DNA of 64,000 nt from the IMG/VR virus record IMGVR_UViG_3300034684_000299, positions 121,438 through 185,437 of that record, one strand, 5' to 3'. The notes below the pieces were generated by a model. That model was not told the origin of the DNA. It ran no database searches and saw only the letters and a program-made list of their open reading frames with translations. Numbering within the stretch: position 1 is the first letter of the stretch; each line of letters starts with the position of its first letter. Shown piece after piece: positions 6,625 through 26,176 of the stretch. This DNA is from a virus. Both the position numbers and the translations under genes were made by a program.

Positions 6625-7053
6625 ATGAAAATAGGAGACTTTAAAAAAGAAGTATTAAACAAAATACGTCAGGATATTGACTATGAAGAACAATTTCCTA
6701 TAGATGATTATGAAATGAGTTTAGAGGAAGTATTAAACATAGATGATGAGAAAGAAATGTCTTTAAAAGATATAGAAGATGAATTGAAAAATGCTCAAGA
6801 ATATTTTGGAGAACACGCTGATAGTTTAGTAGATGTTTATACAAGGGATTTATTGTATTGGTATGCAGAAGATGTCAACAGAATAGCTTATATGGAAGAT
6901 GCAATCAAAGAACTAGGAGCACAAGAGGCTTACCAGATTTTGTCTGGAGGGCAGTATCTGTATTGGGAAGAAGTTTTGAATGAGGTAATAGAAGCAGGAT
7001 TGGGATTAGTTCAAACGGAAGATAACGAAACAGAAGAAGATGAAGAAGAATAA
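6625..7053 (+). CDS. Highly acidic protein, putative Ocr-like DNA mimic (family C)
   Basis: HADSLVDVYTRDLL resembles the T7 gp0.3 motif AADNAVPHYYADIF; acidic tail TEEDEEE. The ORF is secure, the function tentative. Confidence 0.5.
   Translation: MKIGDFKKEVLNKIRQDIDYEEQFPIDDYEMSLEEVLNIDDEKEMSLKDIEDELKNAQEYFGEHADSLVDVYTRDLLYWYAEDVNRIAYMEDAIKELGAQEAYQILSGGQYLYWEEVLNEVIEAGLGLVQTEDNETEEDEEE
6898..7041 (+). repeat. 144-bp direct repeat, copy 1 (3' half of a family C gene)
   Basis: 4 mismatches against 7340-7483 by manual comparison. Confidence 0.9.
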
Positions 7054-7066
7054 AGGAGGAATTAAA

Positions 7067-7513
7067 ATGAAAATAGGAGATTTTAAGAAAGCAGTATTAT
7101 ACAAAATATGGCAAGATTTTGCTTTTAAAAATAGAACTCCTACAGTTGATTATCAAACAGCTATAAATGAGATTTTGTATGAGACAGATGATACAGAGAA
7201 GACTAAAGAAGAAATAGCAGATAAATTAACAAAAGTACAGGATTTTGTAGGAGACTATGCTGACAATTTAATTGACACTTATACAACAGATCAATTAGAT
7301 TGGTATTCAAACGACGCTAACAGAATAGATTATATGGATGATGCAATCAAAGAACTAGGAGCACAAGAGGCTTACCAGATTTTGTCTGGAGGGCAGTATC
7401 TGTATTGGGAAGAAGTTCTTAATGAGGTAATAGAAGCAGGATTGGAAGTAGTTCAAACGGAAGATAACGAAACAGAAGAAGATAAAGATGAAAATGAAAA
7501 TAAAGAAGAATAA
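7067..7513 (+). CDS. Highly acidic protein, putative Ocr-like DNA mimic (family C)
   Basis: Start placed at the ATG after AAAGGAGG (ORF track starts at 7040). YADNLIDTYTTDQL and GGQYLYWEEV motifs. Confidence 0.5.
   Translation: MKIGDFKKAVLYKIWQDFAFKNRTPTVDYQTAINEILYETDDTEKTKEEIADKLTKVQDFVGDYADNLIDTYTTDQLDWYSNDANRIDYMDDAIKELGAQEAYQILSGGQYLYWEEVLNEVIEAGLEVVQTEDNETEEDKDENENKEE
7340..7483 (+). repeat. 144-bp direct repeat, copy 2
   Basis: Near-identical to 6898-7041. Confidence 0.9.
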
Positions 7514-7527
7514 AGGAGGTATAAAAA

Positions 7528-7914
7528 ATGAGTGATGCAGAATTGTGGGAGGAACGTTTAAAAAAAGAAGAAGTAAAACAACAAATAAAAGAAAAAATGA
7601 TAGAAGCAATTACTAAACTTCTATCAAAAAACGATAGGAATTTGTATAGTTATTGGATATATTTTGATGTTAAAGGTAATGTTCATTTAGAACAAACAAA
7701 ACAAATGGAAGCAGAAGATTTTAGAGACAACAAAAATGAAAAAATTTATGTTATTACACATTTTAATACTACTGATAGATTTTTGAAAGACTTTCTTAAA
7801 AAACCAGACTTTTGGTTAGAACATATAATCGAAGTGGCTATGAATGAAATTCAAAGAAAAATAGCTTGGGAAGAATATTTCAGAAAACAAAAAGAAAAAC
7901 AAAGTGTTATTTAA
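7528..7914 (+). CDS. Hypothetical protein (family F, divergent)
   Basis: W...IKEKMIEA...IYFDVKGNVHL pattern. Confidence 0.75.
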   Translation: MSDAELWEERLKKEEVKQQIKEKMIEAITKLLSKNDRNLYSYWIYFDVKGNVHLEQTKQMEAEDFRDNKNEKIYVITHFNTTDRFLKDFLKKPDFWLEHIIEVAMNEIQRKIAWEEYFRKQKEKQSVI

Positions 7915-7932
7915 AAAAAAGGAGGAATTTAA

Positions 7933-8256
7933 ATGTATAAAGTAATTACAATTAAAAATTTCGTTGATGACTTCAAAAATTCAAGTTACAAAGACCATTT
8001 TTCGTATGAAGGGCTTATTGAACTCTTCAAGCATTTCGAAGAGATGGAAAATGAGTTTGATGAAAATTATGTGTTTGATATTGTGGGTATATGTGGCCAA
8101 TTTAGTGAATATCCAAATGTCGAAACGGCTTTAAAAGAATTGGGTGTAGATTCTGAAAAAGAGCTAAGAGAAAATTATTTTGTTATTGATATACCAGAAC
8201 GTGATGGCATAATAGTACAAGTTGATGATTTCCCACAGGAATGGCAATTAATATAA
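7933..8256 (+). CDS. Acidic hypothetical phage protein (family E)
   Basis: FSYEGLIELF...FDIVGICGQFSEY; paralog of 8278. Confidence 0.8.
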   Translation: MYKVITIKNFVDDFKNSSYKDHFSYEGLIELFKHFEEMENEFDENYVFDIVGICGQFSEYPNVETALKELGVDSEKELRENYFVIDIPERDGIIVQVDDFPQEWQLI

Positions 8257-8277
8257 ACTTTAAAAGGAGGAATTAAA

Positions 8278-8610
8278 ATGTATAAAAAATTAGATTTTTG
8301 TGATTTTATTCAAGAATTTAGAAATTCAAGATTTAGAGACTATTTTTCAAATCAAGGTTTGCTTGTTTTATTTAACTATTTAGAAAAACTTGAAGAAGAA
8401 CTTAAGGAGAATTTCGTTTTTGATATTGTAACAATTTGTGATCAATTTCGGGAATTTCCAGATGTAGAAACAGTTTTAGAGGAATTTTATTTAGGTACTG
8501 AACAAGATTTAAGAGAAAGATATAAAATTATTGAATTTCCTGGAAATGAGGGTTTGATTGTTCAAATTGATAAATTCCCTAAACCTTGGCAAAAGGTTCA
8601 GAACTTTTGA
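8278..8610 (+). CDS. Acidic hypothetical phage protein (family E)
   Basis: FSNQGLLVLF...FDIVTICDQFREF. Confidence 0.8.
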   Translation: MYKKLDFCDFIQEFRNSRFRDYFSNQGLLVLFNYLEKLEEELKENFVFDIVTICDQFREFPDVETVLEEFYLGTEQDLRERYKIIEFPGNEGLIVQIDKFPKPWQKVQNF

Positions 8611-8637
8611 GACAAAATTTAAAAAGGAGGAATTAAT

Positions 8638-9435
8638 GTGTTGAAACAATATAAGATACTTATTGATAATGCTGAGAGCAAAGGTTTTAAAGGGAAGTTA
8701 GATATAAATAAAAGTTTCTTAGCATATGTTGAAGACGAGGAAAGAGAAGAAGAAACGTTAAGAAATAAAGCAATTGAACTAATTCCAGAATTAAAAGATA
8801 TGAGTTTTTCTTTAGAACCAATTTGGGAATTAAAAAAAGAAGGTCATAATTATAATAATGATAGGTTCACGGACAAGATATATGTAAGTGTGGATTATGA
8901 TACAGGAGAATGGGAATATGAACCATTAGACTATGTGGATTTTGCACTATTCTACAAAAAATATAAGTTCATAAATACAGTTCCATTCACACCTGATAGA
9001 TTTGAAAGTTGGGAAGAAATGGAAAGATTTATAATGAAAGAATACAATCCTGTTGCTATTATCCCAGTATCCCTCCATGATCATGGGGGGCTTGTTTTAC
9101 TTGATTGGGTAGAAAGGGGATGGGATACTATGCAAATAGGATATATGTTTATATCAAGAGAGACGGCAAATCGAGAAAATTTAACTGAAGAGCAAGCTAA
9201 GAAACTTTTGAAAGACACATTTGATGAATATGCGGCTTATGTGCAAGGTGAGTGTTATATAATAGATATATTTGATTTAACTGAGTTATATAAAGAAGAT
9301 GAAATGGCTCCAATCGAAACCATATCTATTTTAGGGTATGACTATTTGCAAGAAGTGTTAGAAAAAAAGTTAAATGAATTTTTACCGGAAAGGTTGCAAT
9401 TTAAGAAAGACGAGTTATTAGAAGTTCTCGAATGA
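8638..9435 (+). CDS. Hypothetical protein (family B)
   Basis: GTG start with RBS; SLHDHGG...GWD..QIGYM...EYAAYVQGECY. Confidence 0.85.
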   Translation: MLKQYKILIDNAESKGFKGKLDINKSFLAYVEDEEREEETLRNKAIELIPELKDMSFSLEPIWELKKEGHNYNNDRFTDKIYVSVDYDTGEWEYEPLDYVDFALFYKKYKFINTVPFTPDRFESWEEMERFIMKEYNPVAIIPVSLHDHGGLVLLDWVERGWDTMQIGYMFISRETANRENLTEEQAKKLLKDTFDEYAAYVQGECYIIDIFDLTELYKEDEMAPIETISILGYDYLQEVLEKKLNEFLPERLQFKKDELLEVLE

Positions 9436-9463
9436 AAAAACAAAAATCAAAGGAGGAATTTAA

Positions 9464-9871
9464 ATGAAAGCAGGAGATTTTAGAAAAGAAGTATTAGACA
9501 TAATACGTGATAATTTTGATTACGACAAACGAATCCCAATGGAAGATTATGAAACTGCTTTAGATAAAGTTTTAGATGCGGTTGATGAAGAAGATATGAC
9601 ATTAGAGGAAATAGAAAAAGAATTAACAGATGTTGAAGGTAATGTACATGATTATGCCGATGGTTCTGTTCATCCTTATACAGCGGATCTTTTGAGATGG
9701 TATTTGGAAGATATAAATAGGGTATATTATATGGAAGATGCAATCAAAGAGCTAGGTGCTGAAGATGGATTTCAGGTTTTAACTGGTGGGCAATATTTAT
9801 ATTGGGAAGAAGTTTTGAACGAAGTAATAGAAGTTTGTTTGCAATTAATAGAAACAAAGAAAAAAAAATGA
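9464..9871 (+). CDS. Putative Ocr-like DNA mimic (family C)
   Basis: HDYADGSVHPYTADLL is the closest by-eye match to the Ocr motif. Confidence 0.5.
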   Translation: MKAGDFRKEVLDIIRDNFDYDKRIPMEDYETALDKVLDAVDEEDMTLEEIEKELTDVEGNVHDYADGSVHPYTADLLRWYLEDINRVYYMEDAIKELGAEDGFQVLTGGQYLYWEEVLNEVIEVCLQLIETKKKK

Positions 9872-9886
9872 ATCTAAAAAAGAAGA

Positions 9887-10144
9887 GTCAACTACCCCCG
9901 TCTAAAGACGGTGGCTTGTAATAAGCAAGCCCTAGTTGATTAGCCTCAGCCAGAGTCGCAAGACTATCGGGCTACGTTATATCGGAATATATAGGTACCA
10001 TAGGATGCTCCACAAGTCCGATGCTCTACGGTCAGTGATTAAACATCTCTGAGGGGTAGGAGAAGTGTTGCTGACAACAAACCCAATATAACATTGGCGA
10101 TGTGGACCTACCGCTTAACAGCGGATTTATCCTCGAAAGAGGAT
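9887..10144 (+). ncRNA. IscB-type omegaRNA (HEARO-like) scaffold, stand-alone
   Basis: GTCAACTACCCC...GGCTTG, GTTGATTAGCCT, CTACGTTAT, AACATTGGCGA hallmarks; ends in a CCTCGAAAGAGG hairpin; no iscB downstream. Confidence 0.8.
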
Positions 10145-10241
10145 CTAAGTAGGTTCCTATCTCCAAAGATAGGAGCCTATTTCTATTAATTACCAGCTTT
10201 CATCTCTCCAATGAATTGGAGAGTGTTCTAGCTGAATTTTC
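9887..10241 (-). mobile_element. Non-autonomous IS200/IS605 mini-element (left end + omegaRNA + right end, no ORF)
   Basis: Minus-strand right end AAGCCACCGTCTTTAGACGGGGGTAGTTGAC; left-end hairpin CTCTCCAATTCATTGGAGAG next to TTTAT. Removing it restores AGAAGAATAAAGGAGGAATTAAAATG, which also occurs just upstream of the 7067 start codon. Confidence 0.75.
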
Positions 10242-10258
10242 ATAAAGGAGGAATTAAA

Positions 10259-10660
10259 ATGGGAACAGGTGAATTCAAAAAATTGGTAGAAAGTTTGAAT
10301 AACGGGGAACCAGTCAGAGTAATAGTAAACAAAGAAGAATTAGAGAAATTAACACAGATTTATAAATTTGATGAAAATTATTTTGAATTAGGTTTATACA
10401 TGATGGATGTAACAAGGGACAGAGACCCAGATATTGATCTCAACGATGAAGATTTTGATTATTATCGAGAAAATGGGGAAATACTATTTGTATTTGACCC
10501 AAGATCAGAAGATACTTCAATGTATTGGTGGTTAGATGGGTATTATTTTCTAACTGAAGATCCTTTTGAGGGTTCCGAATGGGAAAAAACTTCTATTAGC
10601 GAAATAAATTTTTGGGCAAAAATTCTCGAAAATAAATATATGAAGGAGGAAGGGAAATGA
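10259..10660 (+). CDS. Hypothetical protein (family D)
   Basis: GEFKK...ENGEILFVFD...INFWAKIL. Confidence 0.8.
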   Translation: MGTGEFKKLVESLNNGEPVRVIVNKEELEKLTQIYKFDENYFELGLYMMDVTRDRDPDIDLNDEDFDYYRENGEILFVFDPRSEDTSMYWWLDGYYFLTEDPFEGSEWEKTSISEINFWAKILENKYMKEEGK

Positions 10661-10923
10661 TAAGAATGCCATATGGTATGTTTTTTGAAGATATGAAAAT
10701 AATGACTTCATATTCTGATGATGCCATAGATACTATCTTTGAATTTCTAGACGATTTTGATGGAGAAGCAAACTATGATCCAGTTAATATGACATATGAG
10801 TTTCATGAATACGATAGTTTGGAAAAAGCTTGTGAAGATCTGGATATGTCTAAAAAAGAAATTGAAGACAAATACACTATATTAAAAATGAAAAATGGTG
10901 GAGTAGTTATTTGGATAGTGTGA
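10657..10923 (+). CDS. Acidic hypothetical protein (family E, divergent)
   Basis: YSDDAIDTIFEFL...EFHEYDSLE. Confidence 0.7.
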   Translation: MIRMPYGMFFEDMKIMTSYSDDAIDTIFEFLDDFDGEANYDPVNMTYEFHEYDSLEKACEDLDMSKKEIEDKYTILKMKNGGVVIWIV

Positions 10924-10928
10924 TTTAC

Positions 10929-10954
10929 AGGGGAGTATTCTCCCCTATTTTTTT
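10929..10954 (+). terminator. Intrinsic terminator
   Basis: AGGGGAG-tatt-CTCCCCT followed by a T-tract. Confidence 0.75.
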
Positions 10955-10972
10955 AAATAAGGAGGTAATTAA

Positions 10973-12064
10973 ATGGAAAGAAAATTAGCAAGTATACAAA
11001 GGATTACAGAGATACGCCCAATCGAGAATGCTGATAATATCGAAGTTGCAAAAGTTCTTGGTTGGGAATGTGTTGTTAAAAAATCAGATAATTTTAAAGT
11101 TGGAGATCTTGTAGTTTATATAGAAATAGACTCTATCGTTCCAGATAGACCAGAATTTGAGTTTTTAAAAGAAAGAAAGTTCAAAGTTAAAACAATAAAA
11201 CTTAGAGGGCAAGTATCTCAAGGACTTATAATGCCTCTTAACATACTTCCAAAAAGGCATTATAAAGAAGGAGATAATGTTACTAAAGTACTTGGAGTAA
11301 AGAAATATGATCCCCAAGCTGAGTTAGAACAAAAATTACAAGAACAAAGAGCAAACATAAGTAAAAATAGAGTATATAAATTTTTATCAAGATATTCTTG
11401 GTTTCGCAGACTAATTTTTAGAAAAAGAAGAGATAGATTTCCTAAGTTTATCAAGAAAACTGATGAACCAAGAATTCAGTTATTCCCTACAATCTGTGAG
11501 GATTATAAAGATTTAACGTTCTCGGTTACAGAAAAAATAGATGGAATGAGCGCCACCTACTTTTTGTTAAAGAATCCTAAAAAACGGTTTGCTAATAAAA
11601 ACAAATATATCTTTGGAGTTTGTAGTAGAAACTTATATCTATTACAGGAAGGTAATTCTTCATACTGGATTATAGCAAGAAAGTTTAACATCAAACATGT
11701 ACTTGAAAAATTAATAGGGAACAATGACTATATAGTATTACAAGGAGAAATAATAGGACCTGGAATTCAAGAAAACAAATATCAGCTTTCAGATTATGAT
11801 TTTTATGTGTTTAATTATATCTATCCACATACACAATTCAATAATCTAGAAGCAAAAGATGCATTAGAACCATATGGCATAAAATTTGTTCCCATATTGG
11901 AAGATATGAAATTGAAACCAACAATTCAAGAAATGGTTGAATATTCAAAAGGAAAGTCTAAATTATTACCAATCGATAGAGAAGGGATTGTTTGTAGAAA
12001 TTATGAACACAATATATCCTTTAAGGTAATAAACCCGGATTTTTTGCTCACTAACGATGAATAA
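10973..12064 (+). CDS. ATP-dependent RNA ligase, Rnl2/DRB0094 family
   Basis: N-terminal RKLASIQRI..I.PIENAD OB-like domain; motif I TEKIDG; GVCSRN; LQGEIIGPGIQ; REGIV; FKVINPDFL. Confidence 0.85.
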   Translation: MERKLASIQRITEIRPIENADNIEVAKVLGWECVVKKSDNFKVGDLVVYIEIDSIVPDRPEFEFLKERKFKVKTIKLRGQVSQGLIMPLNILPKRHYKEGDNVTKVLGVKKYDPQAELEQKLQEQRANISKNRVYKFLSRYSWFRRLIFRKRRDRFPKFIKKTDEPRIQLFPTICEDYKDLTFSVTEKIDGMSATYFLLKNPKKRFANKNKYIFGVCSRNLYLLQEGNSSYWIIARKFNIKHVLEKLIGNNDYIVLQGEIIGPGIQENKYQLSDYDFYVFNYIYPHTQFNNLEAKDALEPYGIKFVPILEDMKLKPTIQEMVEYSKGKSKLLPIDREGIVCRNYEHNISFKVINPDFLLTNDE

Positions 12065-12148
12065 TTTTTATTTTAAAGTTGTTTTGGCAAAGAAAATAAG
12101 GTATAATTGATCGATATAATCTTTGTTTTTATCAAAAAATATGATTTT

Positions 12149-12159
12149 TTGGTATATAT
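12149..12159 (+). promoter_or_regulatory. TTGGTATATAT motif (copy 2)
   Basis: Intergenic, upstream of 12187. Confidence 0.6.
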
Positions 12160-12186
12160 TATGTAATTATATAAGGAGGAATAAAA

Positions 12187-12729
12187 ATGACAAACGAAAT
12201 TTTAGTAGGGTTAAGAGAATGGCTAAAAGAACAAGGAAGCATTAATCCTGAAGAGTTAGAGATTATATCAAGAAATTGGATAAAAGAGAATAAGAGTAAA
12301 AAGGTTGTAGAGATAGATGAAAAAGTTCGTGAGCTTTATCCAGCAATTGAAGATATGTACAAAAGACTAATGGATGAGTTGTGTGATATATTAGTTTCTA
12401 TTTTTGAATATGGATGGTCTGATACTTATATTTACTATAATGAAATGTCACGTGTTACTTATAAAATTCATCCAAAAACTCATTCTCTAGAGATTGGGGA
12501 AAATTACATTCTAGAATCTACAGAAAGCGAAATAGAATATAATGTTAAGCATATGAGTACAGAAAAAATATTGTATCTCATATCACCAAAAAATGATTTT
12601 ATCGAGAATTTTCCTGCAATAATTCATAGACTTTTAGAAGAATACTTGAGTAGATTTGATATGGATTACCAAGATCTAAGTAAAAAATACAAAGATTTAA
12701 TTGATACTTTCACAAAAAAGGAGGAATAA
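12187..12729 (+). CDS. Hypothetical protein
   Basis: 180 aa ORF with AAGGAGG RBS. Confidence 0.75.
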   Translation: MTNEILVGLREWLKEQGSINPEELEIISRNWIKENKSKKVVEIDEKVRELYPAIEDMYKRLMDELCDILVSIFEYGWSDTYIYYNEMSRVTYKIHPKTHSLEIGENYILESTESEIEYNVKHMSTEKILYLISPKNDFIENFPAIIHRLLEEYLSRFDMDYQDLSKKYKDLIDTFTKKEE

Positions 12730-12731
12730 CA

Positions 12732-13382
12732 ATGGAAGAATGGAGTAAAATATTTTTGAAACATGAGGATGAGATAAAGGAAAAGTTAGGAGAAATGTTG
12801 AAGATAGCTTACGGAAGGCTTTCTGGTATAATAAGTCTTATATTAGACGAAGAAGGAAAGTTATACATAGAAATTTCAGAGTCAGAAAGTACTATAAACG
12901 AAGACATAAATTCCGGGAAAGCTGTATATGTAGAAACATTCGACGCCCAATATTTCGAGATCAGTGATGATTTGTATACGATGAACATAGATAATGCAGA
13001 AAGAATATTCACTGAATGTGGTGGTGGTGAATATTATGAAAAGTATATAAAAAATTTAGGTGAAGAAGAAAGGTTTGACGCAAGAGAAATATACGACAGT
13101 CTTCCAATAGAAATTCGTAAAAAGGTTTTTGAAAAAATTGTTCAAAACAACATCGATTACTACTTTGATAAATTTTATCCTGAACTTCAGGATTATTGGA
13201 CTACTGATGAAGTCGACGAAGAGGAAGAAGATGATGGAATAACAGAAGAGAAAATTGAATGGAATAACGATAAAATCAAAAAAGAAAGAAAAAAAGAAGA
13301 TGAAGAGGAAGAAGAGCAAAAAATAGAAATGGAGGTAATACATATCAAAAAGAAAGGAGACAAAGATGTTGAAAAAGATTAA
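12732..13382 (+). CDS. Acidic hypothetical protein (family F)
   Basis: EWSKI...ISLILDEEGKLYI...FDAREIY; clear paralog of 14944. Confidence 0.8.
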   Translation: MEEWSKIFLKHEDEIKEKLGEMLKIAYGRLSGIISLILDEEGKLYIEISESESTINEDINSGKAVYVETFDAQYFEISDDLYTMNIDNAERIFTECGGGEYYEKYIKNLGEEERFDAREIYDSLPIEIRKKVFEKIVQNNIDYYFDKFYPELQDYWTTDEVDEEEEDDGITEEKIEWNNDKIKKERKKEDEEEEEQKIEMEVIHIKKKGDKDVEKD

Positions 13383-13758
13383 TTTTAGAAATTTATTTTC
13401 GCCACGCAAAAAGAATGTCAAAGCAGAAAAAGAATTGACGAAAGAAGAATGGTTAAAAATAGCTATTGAAGAAAAAACAAAAATCAAAGGTAGTATACAA
13501 GAAGCGTTAGATAGTTTTTCTAAAATAAAGGAATATCCTGGTGTGTACGATGTATGGATATTTCCAAACAGAGAAGTAAGTTGTATTCTGAGAGGCATTC
13601 CAAAACCAGAGGATAATTTTTCAATGTATCAACTTGGTAATAATGGGAAACTTTTTTGTAGCTTTTTTCCACAAAGAGTAATAAAATACAATAAACAAGA
13701 ATTTGACTTGTGGTTTGAAAAAATACTTGAAAGATTTATAGACAGATTACAATTTTAG
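13366..13758 (+). CDS. Hypothetical protein (family F, short)
   Basis: TKEEWLKIA...FDLWFEKILERFIDRL; close paralog of 28882. Confidence 0.8.
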   Translation: MLKKINFRNLFSPRKKNVKAEKELTKEEWLKIAIEEKTKIKGSIQEALDSFSKIKEYPGVYDVWIFPNREVSCILRGIPKPEDNFSMYQLGNNGKLFCSFFPQRVIKYNKQEFDLWFEKILERFIDRLQF

Positions 13759-13776
13759 GAAAAGGGAGGAAATTAG

Positions 13777-14943: not shown

Positions 14944-15465
14944 ATGAGCAAATGGGAAAAATTAGCTGAAAAATTTGAAGAAAAAATTAAAGATAAAATA
15001 GAAGAAGCTATTGAAATGGCTTATGAAAGTCCATGGGGTATCATAAGTGTTGTATTACATGAAGATGGAGATGTTTATGTGACACACGATGCTTCTGATA
15101 GCACCACTGATGGTGAAGTTTGGGCTGGAAGGGCTATTTATATAGTTAGTTTTGACGCTAATGATTATCATATAACTAATGATTTATATGATTTAGAAAA
15201 AGAAGATGCTGAAAGAATTATAGCTAAAGAATGTAATGGAAAAGAGTATTTTGATAAATATATACAAGATTTAGAAAATTCTGAAGAAGAAGATAAGGAT
15301 TTCGATGCTAGAGACATTTACTATGATTATCTTCCACCAGAAATTCAAAAACTTGTATATGAAGATTTAGTTGATGCATATGTTTATTATTATTTTACAG
15401 AATACTATGATGATTTAATTAACAATTTAATTAAAGAATTAGAAGAAGAAAATGAAGAAAACTAA
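14944..15465 (+). CDS. Acidic hypothetical protein (family F)
   Basis: KWEKL...ISVVLHEDGDVYV...FDARDIY. Confidence 0.8.
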   Translation: MSKWEKLAEKFEEKIKDKIEEAIEMAYESPWGIISVVLHEDGDVYVTHDASDSTTDGEVWAGRAIYIVSFDANDYHITNDLYDLEKEDAERIIAKECNGKEYFDKYIQDLENSEEEDKDFDARDIYYDYLPPEIQKLVYEDLVDAYVYYYFTEYYDDLINNLIKELEEENEEN

Positions 15466-17353: not shown

Positions 17354-17707
17354 ATGACAGAAGAGGAAGAATGGGGATGGGAAGAACAAACAGGCATTAT
17401 TATAGGTGGAATTTTTCTAATATTTTTTCTTATTAGTTCAACATTGTTTCTTTACATGGGAGAATTATTGTTCAGCATAGTATGCCTTATATTAGCTGGA
17501 ATTTTTTCTTTTGGTGCTAATGATAAGGAAACATCTCCTATCACAATTTTGGGATTGCTAAGCATTTTTACTATTATAATTCTTATTATTTTAAAAACAT
17601 CATGGATAATTGCTTTTGTTTCCGCAATATTATGGTCTATTTTAATTGTAATACAATTAATAGCGTATGGTACAACAATTAAAAGAGAAAAGGAGGTTAA
17701 AAAATGA
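17354..17707 (+). CDS. Small multi-pass membrane protein
   Basis: About four hydrophobic stretches. Confidence 0.75.
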   Translation: MTEEEEWGWEEQTGIIIGGIFLIFFLISSTLFLYMGELLFSIVCLILAGIFSFGANDKETSPITILGLLSIFTIIILIILKTSWIIAFVSAILWSILIVIQLIAYGTTIKREKEVKK

Positions 17708-18027: not shown

Positions 18028-18054
18028 TAACATTTAGAAAAGGAGAGATCGAAT

Positions 18055-18471
18055 ATGAGCGAAAATTTTGTGTGGTTATTAGAAAAAGCCAAGGCTGAAA
18101 TAGATAATCCTTATGGATATACAAATGAATTTGGTGAATATACTATCCGTATTCCAATGAAAGAATTAGAAGAAATTGATGATTTGGAATGGGATTTTTG
18201 GGTTTATAAGATTATTTCAATTATAAAAGGCGAAGAAGAAAGAAAAGATTTTGAGGAAAATGGTGCTATAGAATATTCTTTTGATTTACGCTATCGAGGG
18301 ACTTCAACAACAGCTTATGATTCTAAAGGGCAAGAAATTGTGTTTGGAAGTACACAATATTGGAAAGAAGTTTCAGACGAAGAATTTAATTTTTGGGAAA
18401 AATTACTTAAATGGTTGATACAAAAAGATAAAGCATTGGATAATGGGAGCAATCATGTCCACATATCATAA
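18055..18471 (+). CDS. Hypothetical protein (family D)
   Basis: FEENGAIEYSFD...WKEVSDEEFNFWEKLL. Confidence 0.8.
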   Translation: MSENFVWLLEKAKAEIDNPYGYTNEFGEYTIRIPMKELEEIDDLEWDFWVYKIISIIKGEEERKDFEENGAIEYSFDLRYRGTSTTAYDSKGQEIVFGSTQYWKEVSDEEFNFWEKLLKWLIQKDKALDNGSNHVHIS

Positions 18472-19285
18472 ACTATTCATCAAAAATAGTTCTAATATGT
18501 TAGAAATAGCAAGTGAAAGTATCCAATTAATACTCACTTCTCCTCCATACTTCAATGCACCATTCGATTACAAAGATATGTTTGATACTTACGAACAATA
18601 TTTAGAACTTTTGCAACAAGTATCCAAAGAACTATACAGAGTTTTAGCTGAAGGAAGGATCTGTGTTATCAATATCGATGATATGTTGATTAATGGAGAA
18701 AAATTCCCTATTGTTGCAGATGCAACTAAAATTTTCCAAGAAGCTGGGTTTAAGTACAGGGACAGGATTATATGGAAAAAGCCAGATGGTTATTTGAGAA
18801 TAAGTAGAAGAAGCGGTGTTGTTCTACAAAATCCATATCCCATGTATTTTTATCCAGACAATCTCTTGGAGAGTATACTAATCTTCCAGAAAGGGAAATT
18901 TGATTACAAGTCTATTCCTCAAGATGTTAAAGAGAGCTCAAAAATAGATACAAAAGAAATATTAGAAGAAAAATGGTATATGAATCTATGGGAAATGACA
19001 AATGTTCTTCCAAATCAGTCATTAGAGAAAGATATAGCAGCGTTTCCTGACGAATTACCTTATAGAATAATTAAATTATTCTCTTATGTAGGTGAAACAG
19101 TTTTAGACCCATTTGTAGGATCTGGAACTACTATGAAAGTTGCAAGGCAATTGGGAAGAAATAGTATAGGGATAGAAATAGATAGTTCTTTGGTTCCAAT
19201 AATCAAAGAAAAAGTCGGGTTTGGAGGACAATTGAGTTTGTTCCAAAACAAAGATACGTTTGAAATAATACGCGAAAAGGAGTGA
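18443..19285 (+). CDS. Site-specific DNA methyltransferase, N4C/N6A beta class (start may be 18455)
   Basis: Catalytic TSPPY precedes SAM-binding DPFVGSGTT; AAFPDELP. Confidence 0.9.
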   Translation: MGAIMSTYHKLFIKNSSNMLEIASESIQLILTSPPYFNAPFDYKDMFDTYEQYLELLQQVSKELYRVLAEGRICVINIDDMLINGEKFPIVADATKIFQEAGFKYRDRIIWKKPDGYLRISRRSGVVLQNPYPMYFYPDNLLESILIFQKGKFDYKSIPQDVKESSKIDTKEILEEKWYMNLWEMTNVLPNQSLEKDIAAFPDELPYRIIKLFSYVGETVLDPFVGSGTTMKVARQLGRNSIGIEIDSSLVPIIKEKVGFGGQLSLFQNKDTFEIIREKE

Positions 19286-19632
19286 TATCAATGATTATTT
19301 ATACAAAAGATTTATTAGAAAAATTGGGTAATCATTCTGAACAATACATGACAGTTGTTACCCAAGATGTAGATTCAAAAAGATACACGATCTATTATAT
19401 AAAAGAAGTGGTTTGTGCAGGTAACTTCATAATTTTAGATTTGATGTATCAAAAGAAGTTTTATTCAACAAAAGAAGTTTATGACATTATTTCTCATCTT
19501 GACAAAGAAAATTCAGAGTCAACAGTGAAAATAAACCTTCCAGAAGGCAAGTTTATTGATGATTTTGAATTTTGGGATGTAATCAGCCCGGTAGAAAATA
19601 GCTTAATACTCATTATAGGGGTAAAAAGTTGA
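19282..19632 (+). CDS. Hypothetical protein
   Basis: ORF coupled to the methyltransferase stop; RBS AAGGAG. Confidence 0.7.
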   Translation: MISMIIYTKDLLEKLGNHSEQYMTVVTQDVDSKRYTIYYIKEVVCAGNFIILDLMYQKKFYSTKEVYDIISHLDKENSESTVKINLPEGKFIDDFEFWDVISPVENSLILIIGVKS

Positions 19633-19635
19633 TAT

Positions 19636-19660
19636 AGGCTAGCAAATTGCTAGCCTTTTT
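19636..19660 (+). terminator. Intrinsic terminator
   Basis: AGGCTAGC-aaatt-GCTAGCCT-TTTT. Confidence 0.75.
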
Positions 19661-19708
19661 GTTTTTATAGAATATTAAATAAGTTTATCTACTAATGATC
19701 AGATTTTT

Positions 19709-19739
19709 GTTGACTTATTTATTGTTAGTGTGGTACAAT
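19709..19739 (+). promoter_or_regulatory. Sigma70-type promoter
   Basis: TTGACT, 18 nt spacer ending in TGG, then TACAAT. Confidence 0.55.
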
Positions 19740-19778
19740 CGAATTAATCAGTATTTACCGAAAGAAAGAGGGAAAAGT

Positions 19779-20264
19779 ATGACTTTTGAAGAATTTGATA
19801 AATATATAAAGAAATTATGCAATAGTACTTATTATGTCATAGTAATGCAAAAAGAAGATTTGAAACAATTAGGATTAGAATATTTTTTCAGGTATATAAT
19901 TGAAAAGATAGAAACGGGATATCCTTTGGTAAAACCAGAACAAATAGATTTATTTATCTCTGAAGGATTAATTGAATCTGATAGAGCGGTTATGACACCC
20001 GGAGAGTTTGAGAAATTTAAAAAAGAAGGATGTTTGATGTTAGGATTTTCATACCAGATGCAAAGTTTAGAAATCTTTCCATATTGTCCTAATCAAAAAT
20101 ATTTTTATAGACCGTATTGGCCTTATTATCTCGATGATGAAGACCCAGAAGAATGGATGAGTATATCTTGGAGCAATTTTAGTGAAAAGTTGTTCGATAT
20201 TTTTGTTGATTATATAGAAAAACAGCAACAAAAAATATTAAAATTAATTGAAAAAGGAGAGTGA
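19779..20264 (+). CDS. Hypothetical protein (family D-like)
   Basis: Start moved to MTFEEF; FEKFKKEGCLMLGF and YW motifs. Confidence 0.7.
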   Translation: MTFEEFDKYIKKLCNSTYYVIVMQKEDLKQLGLEYFFRYIIEKIETGYPLVKPEQIDLFISEGLIESDRAVMTPGEFEKFKKEGCLMLGFSYQMQSLEIFPYCPNQKYFYRPYWPYYLDDEDPEEWMSISWSNFSEKLFDIFVDYIEKQQQKILKLIEKGE

Positions 20265-20268
20265 AAAA

Positions 20269-20574
20269 ATGGCAGATTTAAAAACTTTAAGGAGTTTGAT
20301 TTATGGGGACTATCTCGAGGTAACGTTAACACCAAAAGTTTTAAAAAAATTAGTTGGAAATAGGTATTATTTACCAGAAACATGTCAGGGCAATGTAACT
20401 TTTACTTTTGACAAAACAAACAATACAACTGAAATTTTTAAACAATGGTTTAAAGACAACGAATTTGATTGGCGAGAAAAAAAGTTATTTATGTGGGGAA
20501 GAGCTGATGATGATGAAATAGAAGCTTGGTGCACAATCCTTGAACATGTAAAAGGCACATCAGCTGTTCAATAA
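20269..20574 (+). CDS. Hypothetical protein (family J, D-related)
   Basis: LEVTLT...TFTFDKT...WCTILEHVKGTSAVQ; paralog of 20597. Confidence 0.8.
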   Translation: MADLKTLRSLIYGDYLEVTLTPKVLKKLVGNRYYLPETCQGNVTFTFDKTNNTTEIFKQWFKDNEFDWREKKLFMWGRADDDEIEAWCTILEHVKGTSAVQ

Positions 20575-20596
20575 TTTATAAAAAGGAGGAAACAAA

Positions 20597-20908
20597 ATGG
20601 CAAATTTGCAAACTGTAAGGGATTTAATTAATGGGCTCTGGTTTGAGGTAACATTAACATCAAAAGCTTATAAAAAAATATTTAAAAACATAAGGGAGCA
20701 ACCAGCAACACTTGATTATGATATAACTTTTACTTTTGATAAAACAAAAAATACAACTAATATTCTCAAACATTATTTTAAAGAAGGTGAATTTGATTGG
20801 TATGAAAAGAAAGAAATTTTTTGGGATAGTGCTGATGAGAATGAAATAGAAGAATGGTGTACAATCCTTGAACATGTAAAAAGGACATCAGCTGTTCAAC
20901 AATTTTAA
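20597..20908 (+). CDS. Hypothetical protein (family J, D-related)
   Basis: FEVTLT...TFTFDKT...WCTILEHVKRTSAVQ. Confidence 0.8.
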   Translation: MANLQTVRDLINGLWFEVTLTSKAYKKIFKNIREQPATLDYDITFTFDKTKNTTNILKHYFKEGEFDWYEKKEIFWDSADENEIEEWCTILEHVKRTSAVQQF

Positions 20909-20923
20909 AAAGGAGGTAACAAA

Positions 20924-21406
20924 ATGGTTAGTATAGTAGAAGTTTTAAAGGGACAAAACGAATGGCAAAATATAGTAGATCAGATTAAAAATCATTACAC
21001 AAAACAAGAAGAACAAAATGCACATATCAAGAATCTTGAAAACGTTTTTGAAGAGATAAAAATACCTGACGATTGGGAGGTGATCATTGCAGGATTTGAA
21101 TTCAATGAGCCAAGTGTCCCATCATATATATCTGTGAACTTATATAAAAAAGATGGGAAAAAGCCTCTATTCTTTTTCTATATTGCCCTAAATAGAGGTT
21201 CCACATTTGAAGAAGAGAAATATAAATATAAAATATTTGTAAGAGATCTTACGCTTCACTTTTATGACCCTGAAATTCGAATATTAATTGATGAACCTGA
21301 TACTCCAGATTTTTACAAAAATATAGATCTTGATAAGCTGTTAGAAAAGTATGATGAATTAAATTCTTTATTTCAGAATTTTTATAAAAAGGAGGTAACA
21401 AAATGA
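20924..21406 (+). CDS. Hypothetical protein (family G)
   Basis: FEEIKIPDDWEV...PSYISVNLY...LLEKYDELNSLF. Confidence 0.75.
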   Translation: MVSIVEVLKGQNEWQNIVDQIKNHYTKQEEQNAHIKNLENVFEEIKIPDDWEVIIAGFEFNEPSVPSYISVNLYKKDGKKPLFFFYIALNRGSTFEEEKYKYKIFVRDLTLHFYDPEIRILIDEPDTPDFYKNIDLDKLLEKYDELNSLFQNFYKKEVTK

Positions 21407-21879
21407 GAATAGTTATTATTTGGCCAAAAGATACAAAGAATTATGTAGAGGAAGGTAACAAAGATATAGGTTCAAACTTAACTATTTATCCACCAGTAGG
21501 TCATAATCCCATTGAAATTTTATGGGAAGAAAGAGATTTTGATGGGTATATATGGAGGTCTGAATTTGAATGTGATGTTAAAGACAAAGTATGGGCTGAA
21601 CAATGGAAAACGGAAAAGGATCACTCAAGATTTTATATAAAAAAATATGCCCATGAAGATGTACTAAAAAGAGGGTTTGAACCAGACGAATTAAAATTTC
21701 TTAATGCCTATAGAGACAGATTTCTTCTTATAGGTATAAGGGGTAATACTCCCATTGAAGGAATGCAAGATTTGTACATTTGGGATAATGAAACTAAAGA
21801 GAAATATCTAATGGAATATACACACCCGGCAAATTTTGACAGTTTTAAAAAGAAATTAGAAGAATTGCACTTAATTTAA
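21403..21879 (+). CDS. Hypothetical protein (family H)
   Basis: IWPKDTK...ECDVKDKVW...YAHEDVLKRGF...LYIWDN; paralog of 22442. Confidence 0.85.
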   Translation: MRIVIIWPKDTKNYVEEGNKDIGSNLTIYPPVGHNPIEILWEERDFDGYIWRSEFECDVKDKVWAEQWKTEKDHSRFYIKKYAHEDVLKRGFEPDELKFLNAYRDRFLLIGIRGNTPIEGMQDLYIWDNETKEKYLMEYTHPANFDSFKKKLEELHLI

Positions 21880-21899
21880 TAATAATAAGGAGTGAAAAA

Positions 21900-22172
21900 A
21901 TGGTAGAGATGAAAAAATATGAAGTAAGAATAGATAGGGAATATCTTGTTGAAATTTATGCTAAAAATGCAGAAGAAGCTGAAGAGTATGTTCAAACATA
22001 TTTAGGCAATTTAGTTGATGAATCAACTCCTAAAGATCAAGAAGAGAAAAATTTCAAAATATCCGATATGGAACTCTTATGGAGCGAAGTTTTAGACTGT
22101 CAAGAAGCTGAAATTAAGGAAAAAGCAAGAAAAATGGGTGTATTTGATAGGTTTTTTGGGGCAAAATATTAA
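21900..22172 (+). CDS. Small acidic protein (family I)
   Basis: YEVRIDREYLVEIYA...DESTP. Confidence 0.75.
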   Translation: MVEMKKYEVRIDREYLVEIYAKNAEEAEEYVQTYLGNLVDESTPKDQEEKNFKISDMELLWSEVLDCQEAEIKEKARKMGVFDRFFGAKY

Positions 22173-22206
22173 ACTCAAAAAAACAAATTATTAAGGAGGC
22201 AAAAAA

Positions 22207-22425
22207 ATGAAAGAATTTGAAGTGGTACTATCTAGAGATTATGTTGTAAGAATCAAGGCTGAGAATAAAGAGAAAGCAAAAGAATATGCAGAAATATTTA
22301 TTGGTGACCCAAAAGACGAATCCACACCAGAAGATAGGGAAGAAAAAAGATTTGAAATTTTAGAGATTAGTTCAGAATTCAACGAAGCATTAGATTGCGA
22401 AGAAGTAGAAGAAATAGAAGAATAA
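22207..22425 (+). CDS. Small acidic protein (family I)
   Basis: FEVVLSRDYVVRIKA...DESTP. Confidence 0.75.
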   Translation: MKEFEVVLSRDYVVRIKAENKEKAKEYAEIFIGDPKDESTPEDREEKRFEILEISSEFNEALDCEEVEEIEE

Positions 22426-22441
22426 AAGGAGATGATGGTTA

Positions 22442-22915
22442 GTGGAAATGGTAAGAATTTGGCAAAAAGATACAAAAGTGTTTTTGGAAAAATCACCCGA
22501 GAATTTTAAATCTAGTTTGACTCTTTTAGCACCGGAAGGGCAAAATCCACCAAAGATTTTGTGGTGGGAAGAGCCAAATTTTAATGGGCATGAGTGGCAA
22601 AAAGAGTTTGAATGTAACGTGAAAGATAAGGTTTGGATTGAACATTGGAAAAAAGTAGACAATATAGAGTTTAAAGTAGAATATGCACACAAAGATGTTC
22701 TAGAAAGAGGATTTACACCTGAAGAATTGAAGTTTCTGAACGTATACAGAGATAAATTTTTGTTGTTAGCTATTCCCAAAGACAGCGAAAGTGAAACAAT
22801 AGAAGATTTGTATATTTGGGATAACAGCACTAAAGAGAAATATTTGTTACCGGATGATTTCACGTGCAAATTGGAAGAATTTAAACTAGAATTAGAAAAA
22901 CTTAAACTAATCTAA
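22442..22915 (+). CDS. Hypothetical protein (family H)
   Basis: IWQKDTK...ECNVKDKVW...YAHKDVLERGF...LYIWDN. Confidence 0.85.
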   Translation: MEMVRIWQKDTKVFLEKSPENFKSSLTLLAPEGQNPPKILWWEEPNFNGHEWQKEFECNVKDKVWIEHWKKVDNIEFKVEYAHKDVLERGFTPEELKFLNVYRDKFLLLAIPKDSESETIEDLYIWDNSTKEKYLLPDDFTCKLEEFKLELEKLKLI

Positions 22916-22935
22916 AGTCATAAAACTCACCTTCT

Positions 22936-22962
22936 CCCCACCTAAACAGGTGGGGCTTTTTT
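22936..22962 (+). terminator. Intrinsic terminator resembling an IS605 end hairpin
   Basis: CCCCACCT-aaac-AGGTGGGG-cTTTTTT. Confidence 0.7.
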
Positions 22963-22978
22963 CAAAATTTTATTTTTT

Positions 22979-22989
22979 TTGGTATATAT
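22979..22989 (+). promoter_or_regulatory. TTGGTATATAT motif (copy 3)
   Basis: Directly after a terminator, upstream of 23020. Confidence 0.6.
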
Positions 22990-23019
22990 TAGTTAATATA
23001 TATTAAAGGAGGGATTTTA

Positions 23020-23346
23020 ATGGGAAATATGATTACTAAGGAAGATTTTTTGGAATTGTTATACAGCCCCATAGTAACTAAAGCATTGGAAATTACTGAT
23101 ATGGAAAAGATCTCAAAAGAAGAGTTTGACAGAATAATGGAAAATGCAAATGATGAAGAAGATAAACTTTTTATGCAATATAAAGGGTTTATTGCATACA
23201 CTTTTGATTCATACAATCAAGAAACCAAAATCAGGATATTTTCTAAAGTTGAAAACAATATCCAACACAAAGGATTCTTTTGTGAAAAATGGAGTGAAGT
23301 AACTCCAGAGAAGTTTGAACTATGGGCAAAAATTTTGCAATACTAA
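23020..23346 (+). CDS. Hypothetical protein (family D)
   Basis: TKEDF...KGFIAYTFD...WSEVTPEKFELWAKIL. Confidence 0.8.
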   Translation: MGNMITKEDFLELLYSPIVTKALEITDMEKISKEEFDRIMENANDEEDKLFMQYKGFIAYTFDSYNQETKIRIFSKVENNIQHKGFFCEKWSEVTPEKFELWAKILQY

Positions 23347-23361
23347 AAGGAGGTAATTTGT

Positions 23362-24510
23362 GTGATTATACAAGGAAAATATAATTTTGCTAAGGTATTT
23401 ACAGAAAATATAGAAGAACAAGCTATTGAACAAATAAAAGAATTTTTAGATCAAGAATTCTCTAAAGATCTAAAGATACGAATAATGCCAGATGCACATG
23501 CAGGTGCAGGATGTGTAATTGGTACTACTATTTACTATCCTAAGAATGATAAAATAATTCCTAATCTGGTTGGAGTTGATATAGGTTGTGGAGTACAAGT
23601 GGTGAAACTAGAAGAGAAAGATATAGATTATGCTAAATTAGACGAAGTTATAAGACAAGAAATTCCTTCTGGTTTTCATGTACGTAATGTTCCACATAAA
23701 TACGCTGAAAAAATACGAATAGAAGAGTTAATGATGTGCGTTTATAACATAAACTGGCGAAGAGCACAATTAAGCATAGGAACATTAGGGGGAGGAAACC
23801 ACTTTATTGAAGTCGATAGAAATGACGATGGAGAGCTATATTTGGTAGTACATTCCGGGAGCAGATATTTAGGTAAGGAGATAGCGGATTACTATCAAAA
23901 ATTGGCTGGTGCTTCCCTTACTGGTTATCCAATAGAACAAAAAAAGAGTATCAAAAAGAAACTTCAAGAAATGGGAATACCAAAAGACTTAGCATATCTA
24001 GAAGGAGAAGATTTAAGAAAGTATTTGTACGATATGGATATAGCACAACATTTTGCTATTTTGAACAGGATGGCTATTATAGACACTATTGTTGAAAAAA
24101 TGAGATTCAAAGTTATAGATAGATTTGAGTCTGTACATAATTATATAGATATAGACAATATGATACTGAGAAAAGGAGCTGTATCTGCTCAATTTGGACA
24201 AAGGTTAATCATTCCAATAAATATGAAAGATGGTAGTTTGATATGTGTAGGAAAAGGTAATCCAGATTGGAATTATTCGGCTCCTCATGGTGCAGGTAGG
24301 ATAATGGGCAGACGGCAAGCAAAAGAAACTCTGTCTTTAGATGAATACAAGTATGCAATGGCAGGTGTTTATTCGACGTCTGTTAATGAAGATACAATAG
24401 ATGAAGCACCTATGGCATATAAACCAATAGAAGAAATAGAAGCAAACATAAAAGATACAGTAGAGATCTTGGAAAGGATATATCCAGTTTACAATTTCAA
24501 AGCTAATTAG
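23362..24510 (+). CDS. rtcB: RtcB RNA-splicing/repair ligase
   Basis: MPDAHAGAGCVIG, GVDIGCG, GTLGGGNHFIE, HSGSR, HNY, SAPHGAGR, DEAPMAYK. Confidence 0.95.
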   Translation: MIIQGKYNFAKVFTENIEEQAIEQIKEFLDQEFSKDLKIRIMPDAHAGAGCVIGTTIYYPKNDKIIPNLVGVDIGCGVQVVKLEEKDIDYAKLDEVIRQEIPSGFHVRNVPHKYAEKIRIEELMMCVYNINWRRAQLSIGTLGGGNHFIEVDRNDDGELYLVVHSGSRYLGKEIADYYQKLAGASLTGYPIEQKKSIKKKLQEMGIPKDLAYLEGEDLRKYLYDMDIAQHFAILNRMAIIDTIVEKMRFKVIDRFESVHNYIDIDNMILRKGAVSAQFGQRLIIPINMKDGSLICVGKGNPDWNYSAPHGAGRIMGRRQAKETLSLDEYKYAMAGVYSTSVNEDTIDEAPMAYKPIEEIEANIKDTVEILERIYPVYNFKAN

Positions 24511-24532
24511 TCTTAAAAAAGGAGGAGCTCAT

Positions 24533-25270
24533 ATGCTGAAAAGTTATAGAATACTAATAAAAGATGCATATAAAGATGAATTTAAAGGAGATCTTGAAAT
24601 ATGTAGTATATTAGTGCCAGTAGGTGAAGACGAAAGGGAAAAAGCATTACAATTAATTCCTGATTTAAAGAATTTAAATTGGGAAATTGAAGAAGAGAAA
24701 ACGATAACAAATGAGCCAATGGAGACTGGAGTGTACGATGAAGAATTCTATATTAACGTAGTTCAAAAAGTTATCGGTATTAACTTCGAACCAGTAGAGT
24801 TTGTTAAATACGCTTTGTTTGATAATAAACATAACTTATTTAACAACATTGATTACAAACAAAAAGATTTTAAAAGCATTATAGAAATGCGGGAATATAT
24901 ATTGGAAAAATTCGAACCTGTTGCTATGAAAGAGATATTTCTGATAGAAAATGGTGTTGTTAAATTAACTGATAAACACGAAATAAATTCCAAACCTGTA
25001 GGGTTTATGTATATAACTAAAAAAGATATGGAAAACAATGATTTATCCAAGAAAGATTGTGAAGATATATTAGAAGAAGAGTTCAAATATTACAAAGCAT
25101 TTGTAGAAGGAGAATTGTTTCTGATAGAAATATATGATTTAAAAGAAATTTATAAAGATGGTATAGAACCTTTAGGTACAATGGTATATTATGGTTTTGA
25201 GAGTGTCGAAAAGTTGTTGAATGGGAATATAGAGGATTATTCATATTTTAAAAAAAATAAGAGGAGGTAA
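24533..25270 (+). CDS. Hypothetical protein (family B)
   Basis: MLKSYRILIKD...VGFMYIT...YKAFVEGELF. Confidence 0.85.
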   Translation: MLKSYRILIKDAYKDEFKGDLEICSILVPVGEDEREKALQLIPDLKNLNWEIEEEKTITNEPMETGVYDEEFYINVVQKVIGINFEPVEFVKYALFDNKHNLFNNIDYKQKDFKSIIEMREYILEKFEPVAMKEIFLIENGVVKLTDKHEINSKPVGFMYITKKDMENNDLSKKDCEDILEEEFKYYKAFVEGELFLIEIYDLKEIYKDGIEPLGTMVYYGFESVEKLLNGNIEDYSYFKKNKRR

Positions 25271-25275
25271 AAAAA

Positions 25276-25638
25276 ATGAAAGTTGAAGAATTCAAAAATA
25301 TAATAAGTAAAGAGAAAAAGAAACATAATAGTTTGATAATCAAAATAACTAAAAAAAAGCTTGAAAATATAATTCCAAAATATTTTGAATATATAAAAAA
25401 GAATATTGCTGATGGGATAGTCCACAAAGAAGAAGTAGAAAATGAAAAATGGAATTGTTTATATCTTGAAATTGATCCACAATATCAAGATATTTTTTTC
25501 TATTTATCAACAGAGGATATTAAAAATGATGGTAGTTTTATGTTTAGAAAAAAATTCAATGAAGTGTCTGAAGAAGAATTAGAAATTTTAAGTAATCTAT
25601 TTAGTAATGACAAATTTTACTACAAACCAAAAAAATAG
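25276..25638 (+). CDS. Hypothetical protein (family D)
   Basis: MKVEEFK...FNEVSEEELEIL. Confidence 0.75.
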   Translation: MKVEEFKNIISKEKKKHNSLIIKITKKKLENIIPKYFEYIKKNIADGIVHKEEVENEKWNCLYLEIDPQYQDIFFYLSTEDIKNDGSFMFRKKFNEVSEEELEILSNLFSNDKFYYKPKK

Positions 25639-25677
25639 AAAACAATTAAGAGAAATTTCTAAAAATGTTTGTCAAAA

Positions 25678-25688
25678 TTGGTATATAT
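25678..25688 (+). promoter_or_regulatory. TTGGTATATAT motif (copy 4)
   Basis: Intergenic, upstream of 25757. Confidence 0.6.
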
Positions 25689-25756
25689 CTTCTAGAAATT
25701 TGAAGTATTTAAGGAAGGAAGATTGGGACGACAAAATATAAGAGGAGGTAAAAAAA

Positions 25757-26176
25757 ATGAAAGTTGAAGAATTCAAAAAGAGTGTCTTAAACAGTTTAGA
25801 TGAAATACCTGAATTACCGTATGGTTCAGTGTTCATTGAGATGCATTATGATAAAGCCGATTACCAAAAAACTTTAGACGAAATATTAGATCAAGAAGAA
25901 ATGAGTGTTAAAGAAATAGAAGAAACATTAAAAGAAGCACAAAATGAGCCATATAGAATAGCTGATAATTTGACTGATATTTATACAGCCGATCTTTTGG
26001 AATGGTATATGAAAGATCTTGACAGAATTTCTTATTTAGACGAAGCTCTCAAAAATTTAGAAGCACCAGATGGTATTACTGCTTTGTCAGAAGGACAATT
26101 TTTATATTGGGAAGAGGTAGTATCAGAAGTAATTGAAAAGGGACTTGAAACACTTAAAAACTTTAAAAAAAAATAA
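25757..26176 (+). CDS. Putative Ocr-like DNA mimic (family C)
   Basis: IADNLTDIYTADLLEWY...EGQFLYWEEVV. Confidence 0.5.
   Translation: MKVEEFKKSVLNSLDEIPELPYGSVFIEMHYDKADYQKTLDEILDQEEMSVKEIEETLKEAQNEPYRIADNLTDIYTADLLEWYMKDLDRISYLDEALKNLEAPDGITALSEGQFLYWEEVVSEVIEKGLETLKNFKKK

Follow-up and report, generated by a model that had tools for sequence, protein, structure and literature searches.

Four paralogous acidic proteins of a 185-kb phage very probably form a distant, multi-copy branch of the Ocr superfamily and are candidate DNA mimics

Four acidic paralogs in a block of small genes

The viral record IMGVR_UViG_3300034684_000299 (185,437 bases; CheckV completeness 91%) ends in a 64-kb stretch, positions 121,438 to 185,437, which is the window analyzed here and to which all coordinates refer; it carries four genes for small, strongly acidic proteins that are very probably distant relatives of Ocr, the product of T7 gene 0.3. 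Ocr is the textbook DNA mimic, a dimer that blocks type I restriction-modification (R-M) as well as BREX; PARIS senses it. To our knowledge, it is known almost only from T7-like coliphages. The first ~35 kb of the window form a compact, putatively early, co-directional plus-strand block of small genes at ~30% G+C, in which the four genes lie (Table 1). Other products of the block include a beta clamp of DNA polymerase III, ThyX, RtcB, a TnpB, an RNA ligase and an N6_N4-type DNA methylase. The phage is unlike T7, as a sequence-only reading of the window had proposed: its record is 185 kb long and no match to the T7-type RNA polymerase family PF00940 was found in the genome, in a search that also matched no control genome. 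A promoter scan was at chance level (25 found versus 25.7 expected).

The sequence-only reading had also singled out four open reading frames (ORFs) rich in D/E, starting at 6625, 7067, 9464 and 25757, together with a motif common to all and acidic tails in two of them, and each of these observations holds. The ORFs are real genes for proteins of 135-148 amino acids (aa) with a D/E share of 24-30%, net charges of -18 to -32 and pI 4.05-4.32. The motif A-D-x-x-(V/I/T)-x-x-Y-T-x-D-(L/Q)-L recurs in each of the proteins (HADSLVDVYTRDLL, YADNLIDTYTTDQL, YADGSVHPYTADLL and IADNLTDIYTADLL), and the two acidic C-terminal tails read ...TEDNETEEDEEE and ...TEDNETEEDKDENENKEE, the other two termini being basic. 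AAGGAGG or GGAGG is positioned ~7-8 nucleotides 5' of each of the four ATG starts. For paralog 2, a longer frame with an ATG at 7040 lacks a ribosome-binding site (RBS), and 7067 is taken as the start because the RBS AAAGGAGGAATTAAAATG precedes it. The four genes are true paralogs, the other three products being 63, 55 and 45% identical to that of paralog 1 (a range of 45-63% to the first copy), with 41 invariant columns in the alignment. Paralog 4 is the most diverged copy and has a 7-residue insert near its N-terminus. A search of the whole genome with the family profile found exactly four copies.

Table 1. Coordinates of the Ocr-like genes, the adjacent ~250-aa family and other features of the window
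Feature	Position	Strand	Properties or evidence
Ocr-like paralog 1	6625-7053	+	142 aa, net charge -32, acidic C-terminal tail; family profile E 1e-41
Ocr-like paralog 2	7067-7513	+	148 aa, net charge -25, longest acidic tail; family profile E 1e-38
Ocr-like paralog 3	9464-9871	+	135 aa, net charge -21, basic KKKK end; family profile E 2.8e-44
Ocr-like paralog 4	25757-26176	+	139 aa, net charge -18, basic FKKK end; family profile E 6.3e-37
~250-aa family member, directly upstream of paralog 1	5835-6605	+	alignment, BLAST family
~250-aa family member, directly upstream of paralog 3	8638-9435	+	confident model, no known fold
~250-aa family member, one small gene between it and paralog 4	24533-25270	+	alignment, BLAST family
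Fourth ~250-aa family member, away from the Ocr-like genes	27922-28731	+	alignment, BLAST family
N6_N4-type DNA methyltransferase	18443-19285	+	
Dam-like (D12) methylase	37617-38543	-	
TnpB/IS605 OrfB-type gene, inside the early gene block	30283-31446		matches HTH_OrfB_IS605, OrfB_IS605 and Cas12f1-like TNB
Two consecutive basic proteins	33087-34995		unlike the acidic genes around them

Sequence relationship to T7 Ocr

Taken by themselves, the four proteins are not recognized by existing family models. At E≤1 they match neither Pfam ocr (PF08684) nor, convincingly, any other Pfam family, and ArdA, ArdB-KlcA and other anti-restriction families are likewise absent from their Pfam matches at that level; a six-frame search of the genome with PF08684 gave no match at E≤10. 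PHROGs returned only a weak match to phrog_25985 (function unknown, E 0.0012) and NCBIfam returned nothing. A profile of the four searched against PDB sequences gave nothing below E 0.4, and no ArdA, Arn or Gam chain is found among its six matches at E≤10. A hidden Markov model (HMM) that we built from an alignment of 27 of the 360 homologs found at E≤1e-3 for T7 gene 0.3 (NC_001604) scores the four at just 0.8-5.9 bits, and hhalign of the four-sequence profile with Ocr reports a probability of 0.6%.

Similarity to Ocr above null expectation is seen for the profile of the wider family only, not for the four alone. This profile derives from an alignment of 123 family sequences that has the 9464 protein (paralog 3) first and holds no Ocr sequence. 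Aligned by hhalign with the 27 Ocr homologs, it gives a probability of 88.1%, E 3e-6 and a score of 40.1 over 88 columns that correspond to Ocr residues 30-117, compared with a mean of 11.2 (standard deviation 2.4, maximum 20.4) for 100 column-shuffled Ocr alignments and 26.3 for the reversed alignment. The HMM searches agree in both directions. The Ocr HMM reaches at least 10 bits for 28 of 150 family representatives and at least 12 bits for 21 (top score 28.6). At 10 bits or more the controls gave a single match among 1500 shuffled copies and a single match among 150 reversed ones, and the best of 43 other proteins of the window scores 7.1. The family HMM reaches at least 10 bits for 86 of 120 Ocr homologs, which are close kin and hence not 86 independent events, and the contrast with the nulls is clear (shuffled 0/1200, reversed 2/120). 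Pfam ocr itself matches two of the 123 family members, the better of which, P0136, at 22.9 bits lies just under the gathering score of 25 bits; T7 Ocr, as positive control, scores 215.4 bits.

The hhalign register places Ocr AADNAVPHYYADIF on YADGSVHPYTADLL, and the best-conserved residues pair with one another: Ocr D43, Y49, D52, D77, L82 and Y87 correspond to D66, Y72, D75, D101, L106 and Y111. The resemblance to Ocr that the sequence-only reading had put forward is retained as very probable remote homology, in the same register as in that reading, visible through the family profile and not by any direct match. Since they fall below the threshold of the Pfam ocr model, the four proteins are, judged by profile comparison, best classed as relatives within an Ocr superfamily and not as members of PF08684 as Pfam now delimits it.

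Predicted fold and dimer interface

The 9464 protein was modeled with AlphaFold2 on the family alignment without templates (pLDDT 95.8, pTM 0.89). The model consists of seven helices, the last spanning residues 102-134, and its best structural match is Ocr (1s7z_A), which ranks first of 48,161 chains at 20% identity; the Ocr arrangement of helices A-D with a long C-terminal helix D is seen in the model, so that the predicted fold is not unlike Ocr. Foldseek of the same model against the PDB gave a best E of 0.72 and did not list Ocr. In BFVD it matched only uncharacterised phage proteins, the best (E 6.7e-3) being from a Corynebacterium phage, together with two DUF7222 proteins whose E values were no better than 0.5.

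Several features set the four apart from T7 Ocr, whose net charge of -28 lies within their range. They are 18-31 residues longer, and the structural match begins at residue 26 of the model, preceded by a helix (residues 3-17) that is apparently an N-terminal addition. The region aligned to Ocr 61-73, which we take to be loop 2 of Ocr, is helical here (residues 84-97). The layout of charge also departs from that of Ocr: D and E are densest within the N-terminal 58 residues (11-21 in each protein) and not in the last helix, where the segment at reference positions 107-128 has just 4-6.

A two-copy prediction of the 9464 protein scored 0.48, compared with 0.00 for the best of three controls, and so passed a mark that 20 of 30 solved homodimers and 1 of 23 solved single chains reach, a rough calibration given the custom alignment used. 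Three runs agree in at least 96% of contacts with a partner pLDDT of at least 91; the pass may reflect prior exposure of the model to the solved dimer of Ocr. The predicted interface is symmetric and is composed of residues 73-74, 77-78, 80-81, 84, 87-88, 90-91, 94-95, 100-103 and 105-106, of which 77, 81, 94 and 105 make self-contacts. In the hhalign register, F54 and A58 of Ocr are matched by L77 and L81, and the Ocr F54D/A58E mutant is described as having diminished dimerisation (Isaev et al. 2020, PMC7261183). Because L77 and L81 both align with these positions and lie in the predicted interface, the alignment and the separate complex prediction each indicate that the proteins would dimerise through the same interface as Ocr.

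Acidic helical proteins might in principle resemble one another through composition and helical periodicity alone, with no ancestry shared with Ocr. This is improbable for the present family, given that its HMM scores stand far above the shuffled and reversed nulls in both directions, that the hhalign score is well clear of both its shuffled maximum and its reversed control, that Ocr ranks first among the structural matches, and that register, structural range and dimer interface are concordant. Common ancestry of the four proteins with Ocr, by way of intermediates, is in our judgment very probable.

A wider family in metagenomes

A HMMER scan of 1.84 billion representatives (50% identity level) with the four-sequence profile identified 396 proteins at E≤1e-3, of which 26 reach ≤1e-10 and 4 reach ≤1e-30. 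Members are mostly 100-200 aa long, with a conserved core at profile positions ~52-125. Among 58 members scanned, no Pfam family was matched at E≤0.01 apart from sub-threshold chance matches, and the 10 representatives looked up by cluster are named only "hypothetical protein". Acidity is a property of the family, with pI<5 in 148 of 150 representatives and a mean net charge of -18.8, and as it is seen across many sources it is not merely a reflection of the acidic proteome of this phage.

In a tblastn search of 50,697 phage records the 9464 protein, P0021 and P0044 were without a match and P0136 had one, to a marine phage. A pattern search of viral contigs gave 50 matched stretches and no relatives; the same kind of search in metagenome contigs gave four loci out of at least 591 pattern matches, three of which (L002, L003 and L004) were inspected. 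A protein of the T7-like marine Pedosvirus S28C3 (Autographiviridae), BAQ94013.1, matches the family profile (98.4%, E 8.5e-15) and by itself does not match the Ocr profile (0.5%). Its gene comes third among the annotated ORFs that separate the genes for terminase and RNA polymerase, a stretch that corresponds to the early region where T7 keeps gene 0.3. A family that spans this marine virus and a 185-kb phage would, with its 396 representatives, broaden the known reach of the Ocr counter-defence strategy, and it would supply annotators with a new profile.

In the metagenomic locus L003, a homolog with a long acidic tail (6001-6558) lies ~3 kb downstream of a pair of genes (1-2878) encoding an AAA_15/AAA_21 ATPase, in which an OLD-like TOPRIM domain scores below threshold, and a UvrD-like helicase. 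Judged by its domains the pair is Gabija-like, which would place a counter-defence candidate next to a defense system. In the relative P0010, the final ~15 residues (…EEWEKKRGELND) match the C-terminus of a DUF1281_C/Api92-like protein (BLASTP E 4e-5, 42 residues), whose gene lies just after paralog 4 at 26192-26935 of the window; it seems that a deletion in a related phage fused the two genes.

Divergence among the four copies

Pairwise identity among the four proteins climbs toward the C-terminus, from 33-48% over positions 1-58 to 42-67% over 59-106 and 59-91% over 107-128. Over their 3' halves (6950-7053 versus 7392-7500) the DNA of paralogs 1 and 2 is nearly identical, and over their 5' halves it is ~70% identical, a pattern that suggests tandem duplication or gene conversion in the recent past, the divergence being limited to the N-terminal half. 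Five of the 19 predicted interface positions are invariant among the paralogs, compared with 24 of 51 other core positions, small numbers from which we draw nothing firm beyond a hint that the copies may have drifted toward separate homodimers.

Paralog families are common in this part of the genome. Between positions 1 and 35000, 12 of them (BLASTP E≤1e-4), among which are 859/3102/3893/4686, 5472/17704/18055/23020/32408 and 12732/14944/26928/31893, take in 36 of the 57 plus-strand genes, and five of the 12 comprise four or five genes each. So high a density of families is unusual for an early region. The four Ocr-like copies could on that account be by-products of a duplication-prone region, or decoys, of which one or none is active and the rest are drifting, and the near-identical 3' DNA of 6625 and 7067 fits such a history. 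We hold the chance of this to be low: all four genes are intact, each has its own strong RBS, the core motifs and 41 columns are kept, and every copy matches the family profile at E≤6e-37.

A start of the form M-K/T-x-E/G-E/D-F-K-K/N is shared by small proteins that otherwise differ (5472, 10259, 17704, 25276, 25757 and others), and it also opens the four Ocr-like proteins. It may come from an N-terminal helix common to these proteins, from recombination at gene starts or from a preference in translation initiation.

Proposed function of the Ocr-like proteins

A function can be proposed by analogy on grounds that are all computational: the four are paralogs, they belong to a family that is acidic throughout and has remote homology to Ocr, and they have an Ocr-like fold and a predicted dimer that uses positions equivalent to those of Ocr. 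The four genes would encode distant members of the Ocr superfamily, small, all-helical and strongly acidic, whose products most likely assemble as symmetric homodimers like T7 Ocr. Such homodimers could act as DNA-like decoys that fill the DNA-binding groove of host defense enzymes that recognise DNA, or that of further proteins that bind DNA. The first candidate targets would be the methyltransferase complexes of type I R-M and of BREX-type systems, and the four diverged copies may cover different targets. By analogy, counter-defence is the likely role of these proteins, and we favor with moderate confidence the specific proposal that they are Ocr-like decoys with type I R-M and BREX as their first targets. 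The same action, that of an acidic dimeric DNA decoy blocking type I R-M, has been proposed for ArdA of Tn916 and conjugative plasmids, Arn and Gam, which a review describes as non-homologous to Ocr (PMC12707154).

Three considerations call for caution. The first concerns acidity, on which the sequence-only reading had leaned as an argument for Ocr and which loses most of its force here because the whole early region is acidic: unrelated neighboring ORFs are equally rich in D/E (0.30 at 12732, 0.29 at 14944, 0.29 at 17704 and 0.35 at 22207) with pI near 4, and acidity does not mark out the four. The second is copy number, which is unremarkable where so large a share of the plus-strand genes sits in paralog families; the expanded panel that had been claimed survives as an exact count of four in the genome, in a block where multi-copy families are the rule. 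Third, Urza gp75, an actinobacteriophage protein labeled Ocr-like, is reported to have failed to overcome the one restriction barrier tried (PMC12646305).

The main rival retains the Ocr fold and changes the target: the proteins would bind host machinery of another kind that also engages DNA, RNA polymerase or nucleoid proteins for example, and silence it for host takeover instead of blocking restriction or BREX. The homology and fold evidence fits this as well. Ocr is described as binding Escherichia coli RNA polymerase and H-NS (PMC12707154), and Roberts et al. 2012 propose as the forerunner of Ocr an acidic scaffold whose partner was a different DNA-binding protein (PMC3439906). In addition, the layout of charge in the four is unlike that of Ocr, and the genes sit amid many unexplained early paralog families. 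Nevertheless, the sole characterised relative acts mainly on type I R-M and BREX (PMC12707154, PMC7261183), one family member occupies a gene 0.3-like position in the early region of a T7-like phage, and nothing points to any specific alternative target. We therefore regard a non-defense target as a possibility to be kept in view, if a rather unlikely one.

The idea of distant Ocr-like proteins is not new. Bioinformatic "Ocr-like antirestriction" labels already exist in actinobacteriophages (Urza gp75, ChewyVIII gp86) and in the Bacillus phage PhiBc24 (10.1101/2022.11.23.517428, PMC12646305, PMC12651245), and these proteins resemble the present four in being distant, outside T7-like coliphages and assigned by bioinformatics. 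They differ in being single-copy, as far as those papers describe them, and the tblastn search of 50,697 phage records, with its one match to a marine phage, did not link them to the present family. Outside subscription journals and preprint supplements, we found no published description of the family, of the reciprocal link with Ocr or of a multi-copy set per genome. T7 has one copy and the 185-kb phage has four, which very probably represent a new, distant, multi-copy branch of the Ocr superfamily, and four diverged copies in one genome provide a natural experiment on how the specificity of a DNA mimic evolves.

A more far-reaching and doubtful extension of the decoy proposal is that the family represents the broader, older stock behind T7 Ocr and that in this phage four insulated homodimers have been tuned to separate host defenses that recognise DNA, through the fast-diverging N-terminal half and the interface, and perhaps also dodge systems that sense Ocr, PARIS among them. 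If true, it would bear on a question posed as open by Roberts et al. 2012, "How did Ocr evolve?" (PMC3439906), and would give the phage a built-in panel of mimics with separate specificities. Should the proteins not bind defense enzymes, the finding reduces to a remote structural relationship.

Neighboring genes and other features of the window

A gene of a ~250-aa paralog family precedes three of the four Ocr-like genes, with at most one gene in between (Table 1), and the two families are again adjacent in the metagenomic locus L002. The 5835-6605 protein has no Pfam, PHROG or NCBIfam match, and the confident model obtained for the family (pLDDT 90.0) shows no recognisable fold. A 388-base gap 3' of paralog 3 holds a 16-pair hairpin followed by a T-rich stretch (10147-10182), a candidate terminator that could close the gene block of paralog 3.

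The window encodes two DNA methyltransferases, one of the N6_N4 type and one of the Dam-like D12 type, which would give the phage an independent second route around restriction. Of the two consecutive basic proteins, one is weakly SLATT_6-like (E 8.5e-4, under the cut-off) and the other, 452 aa long, has a glycine-zipper match.

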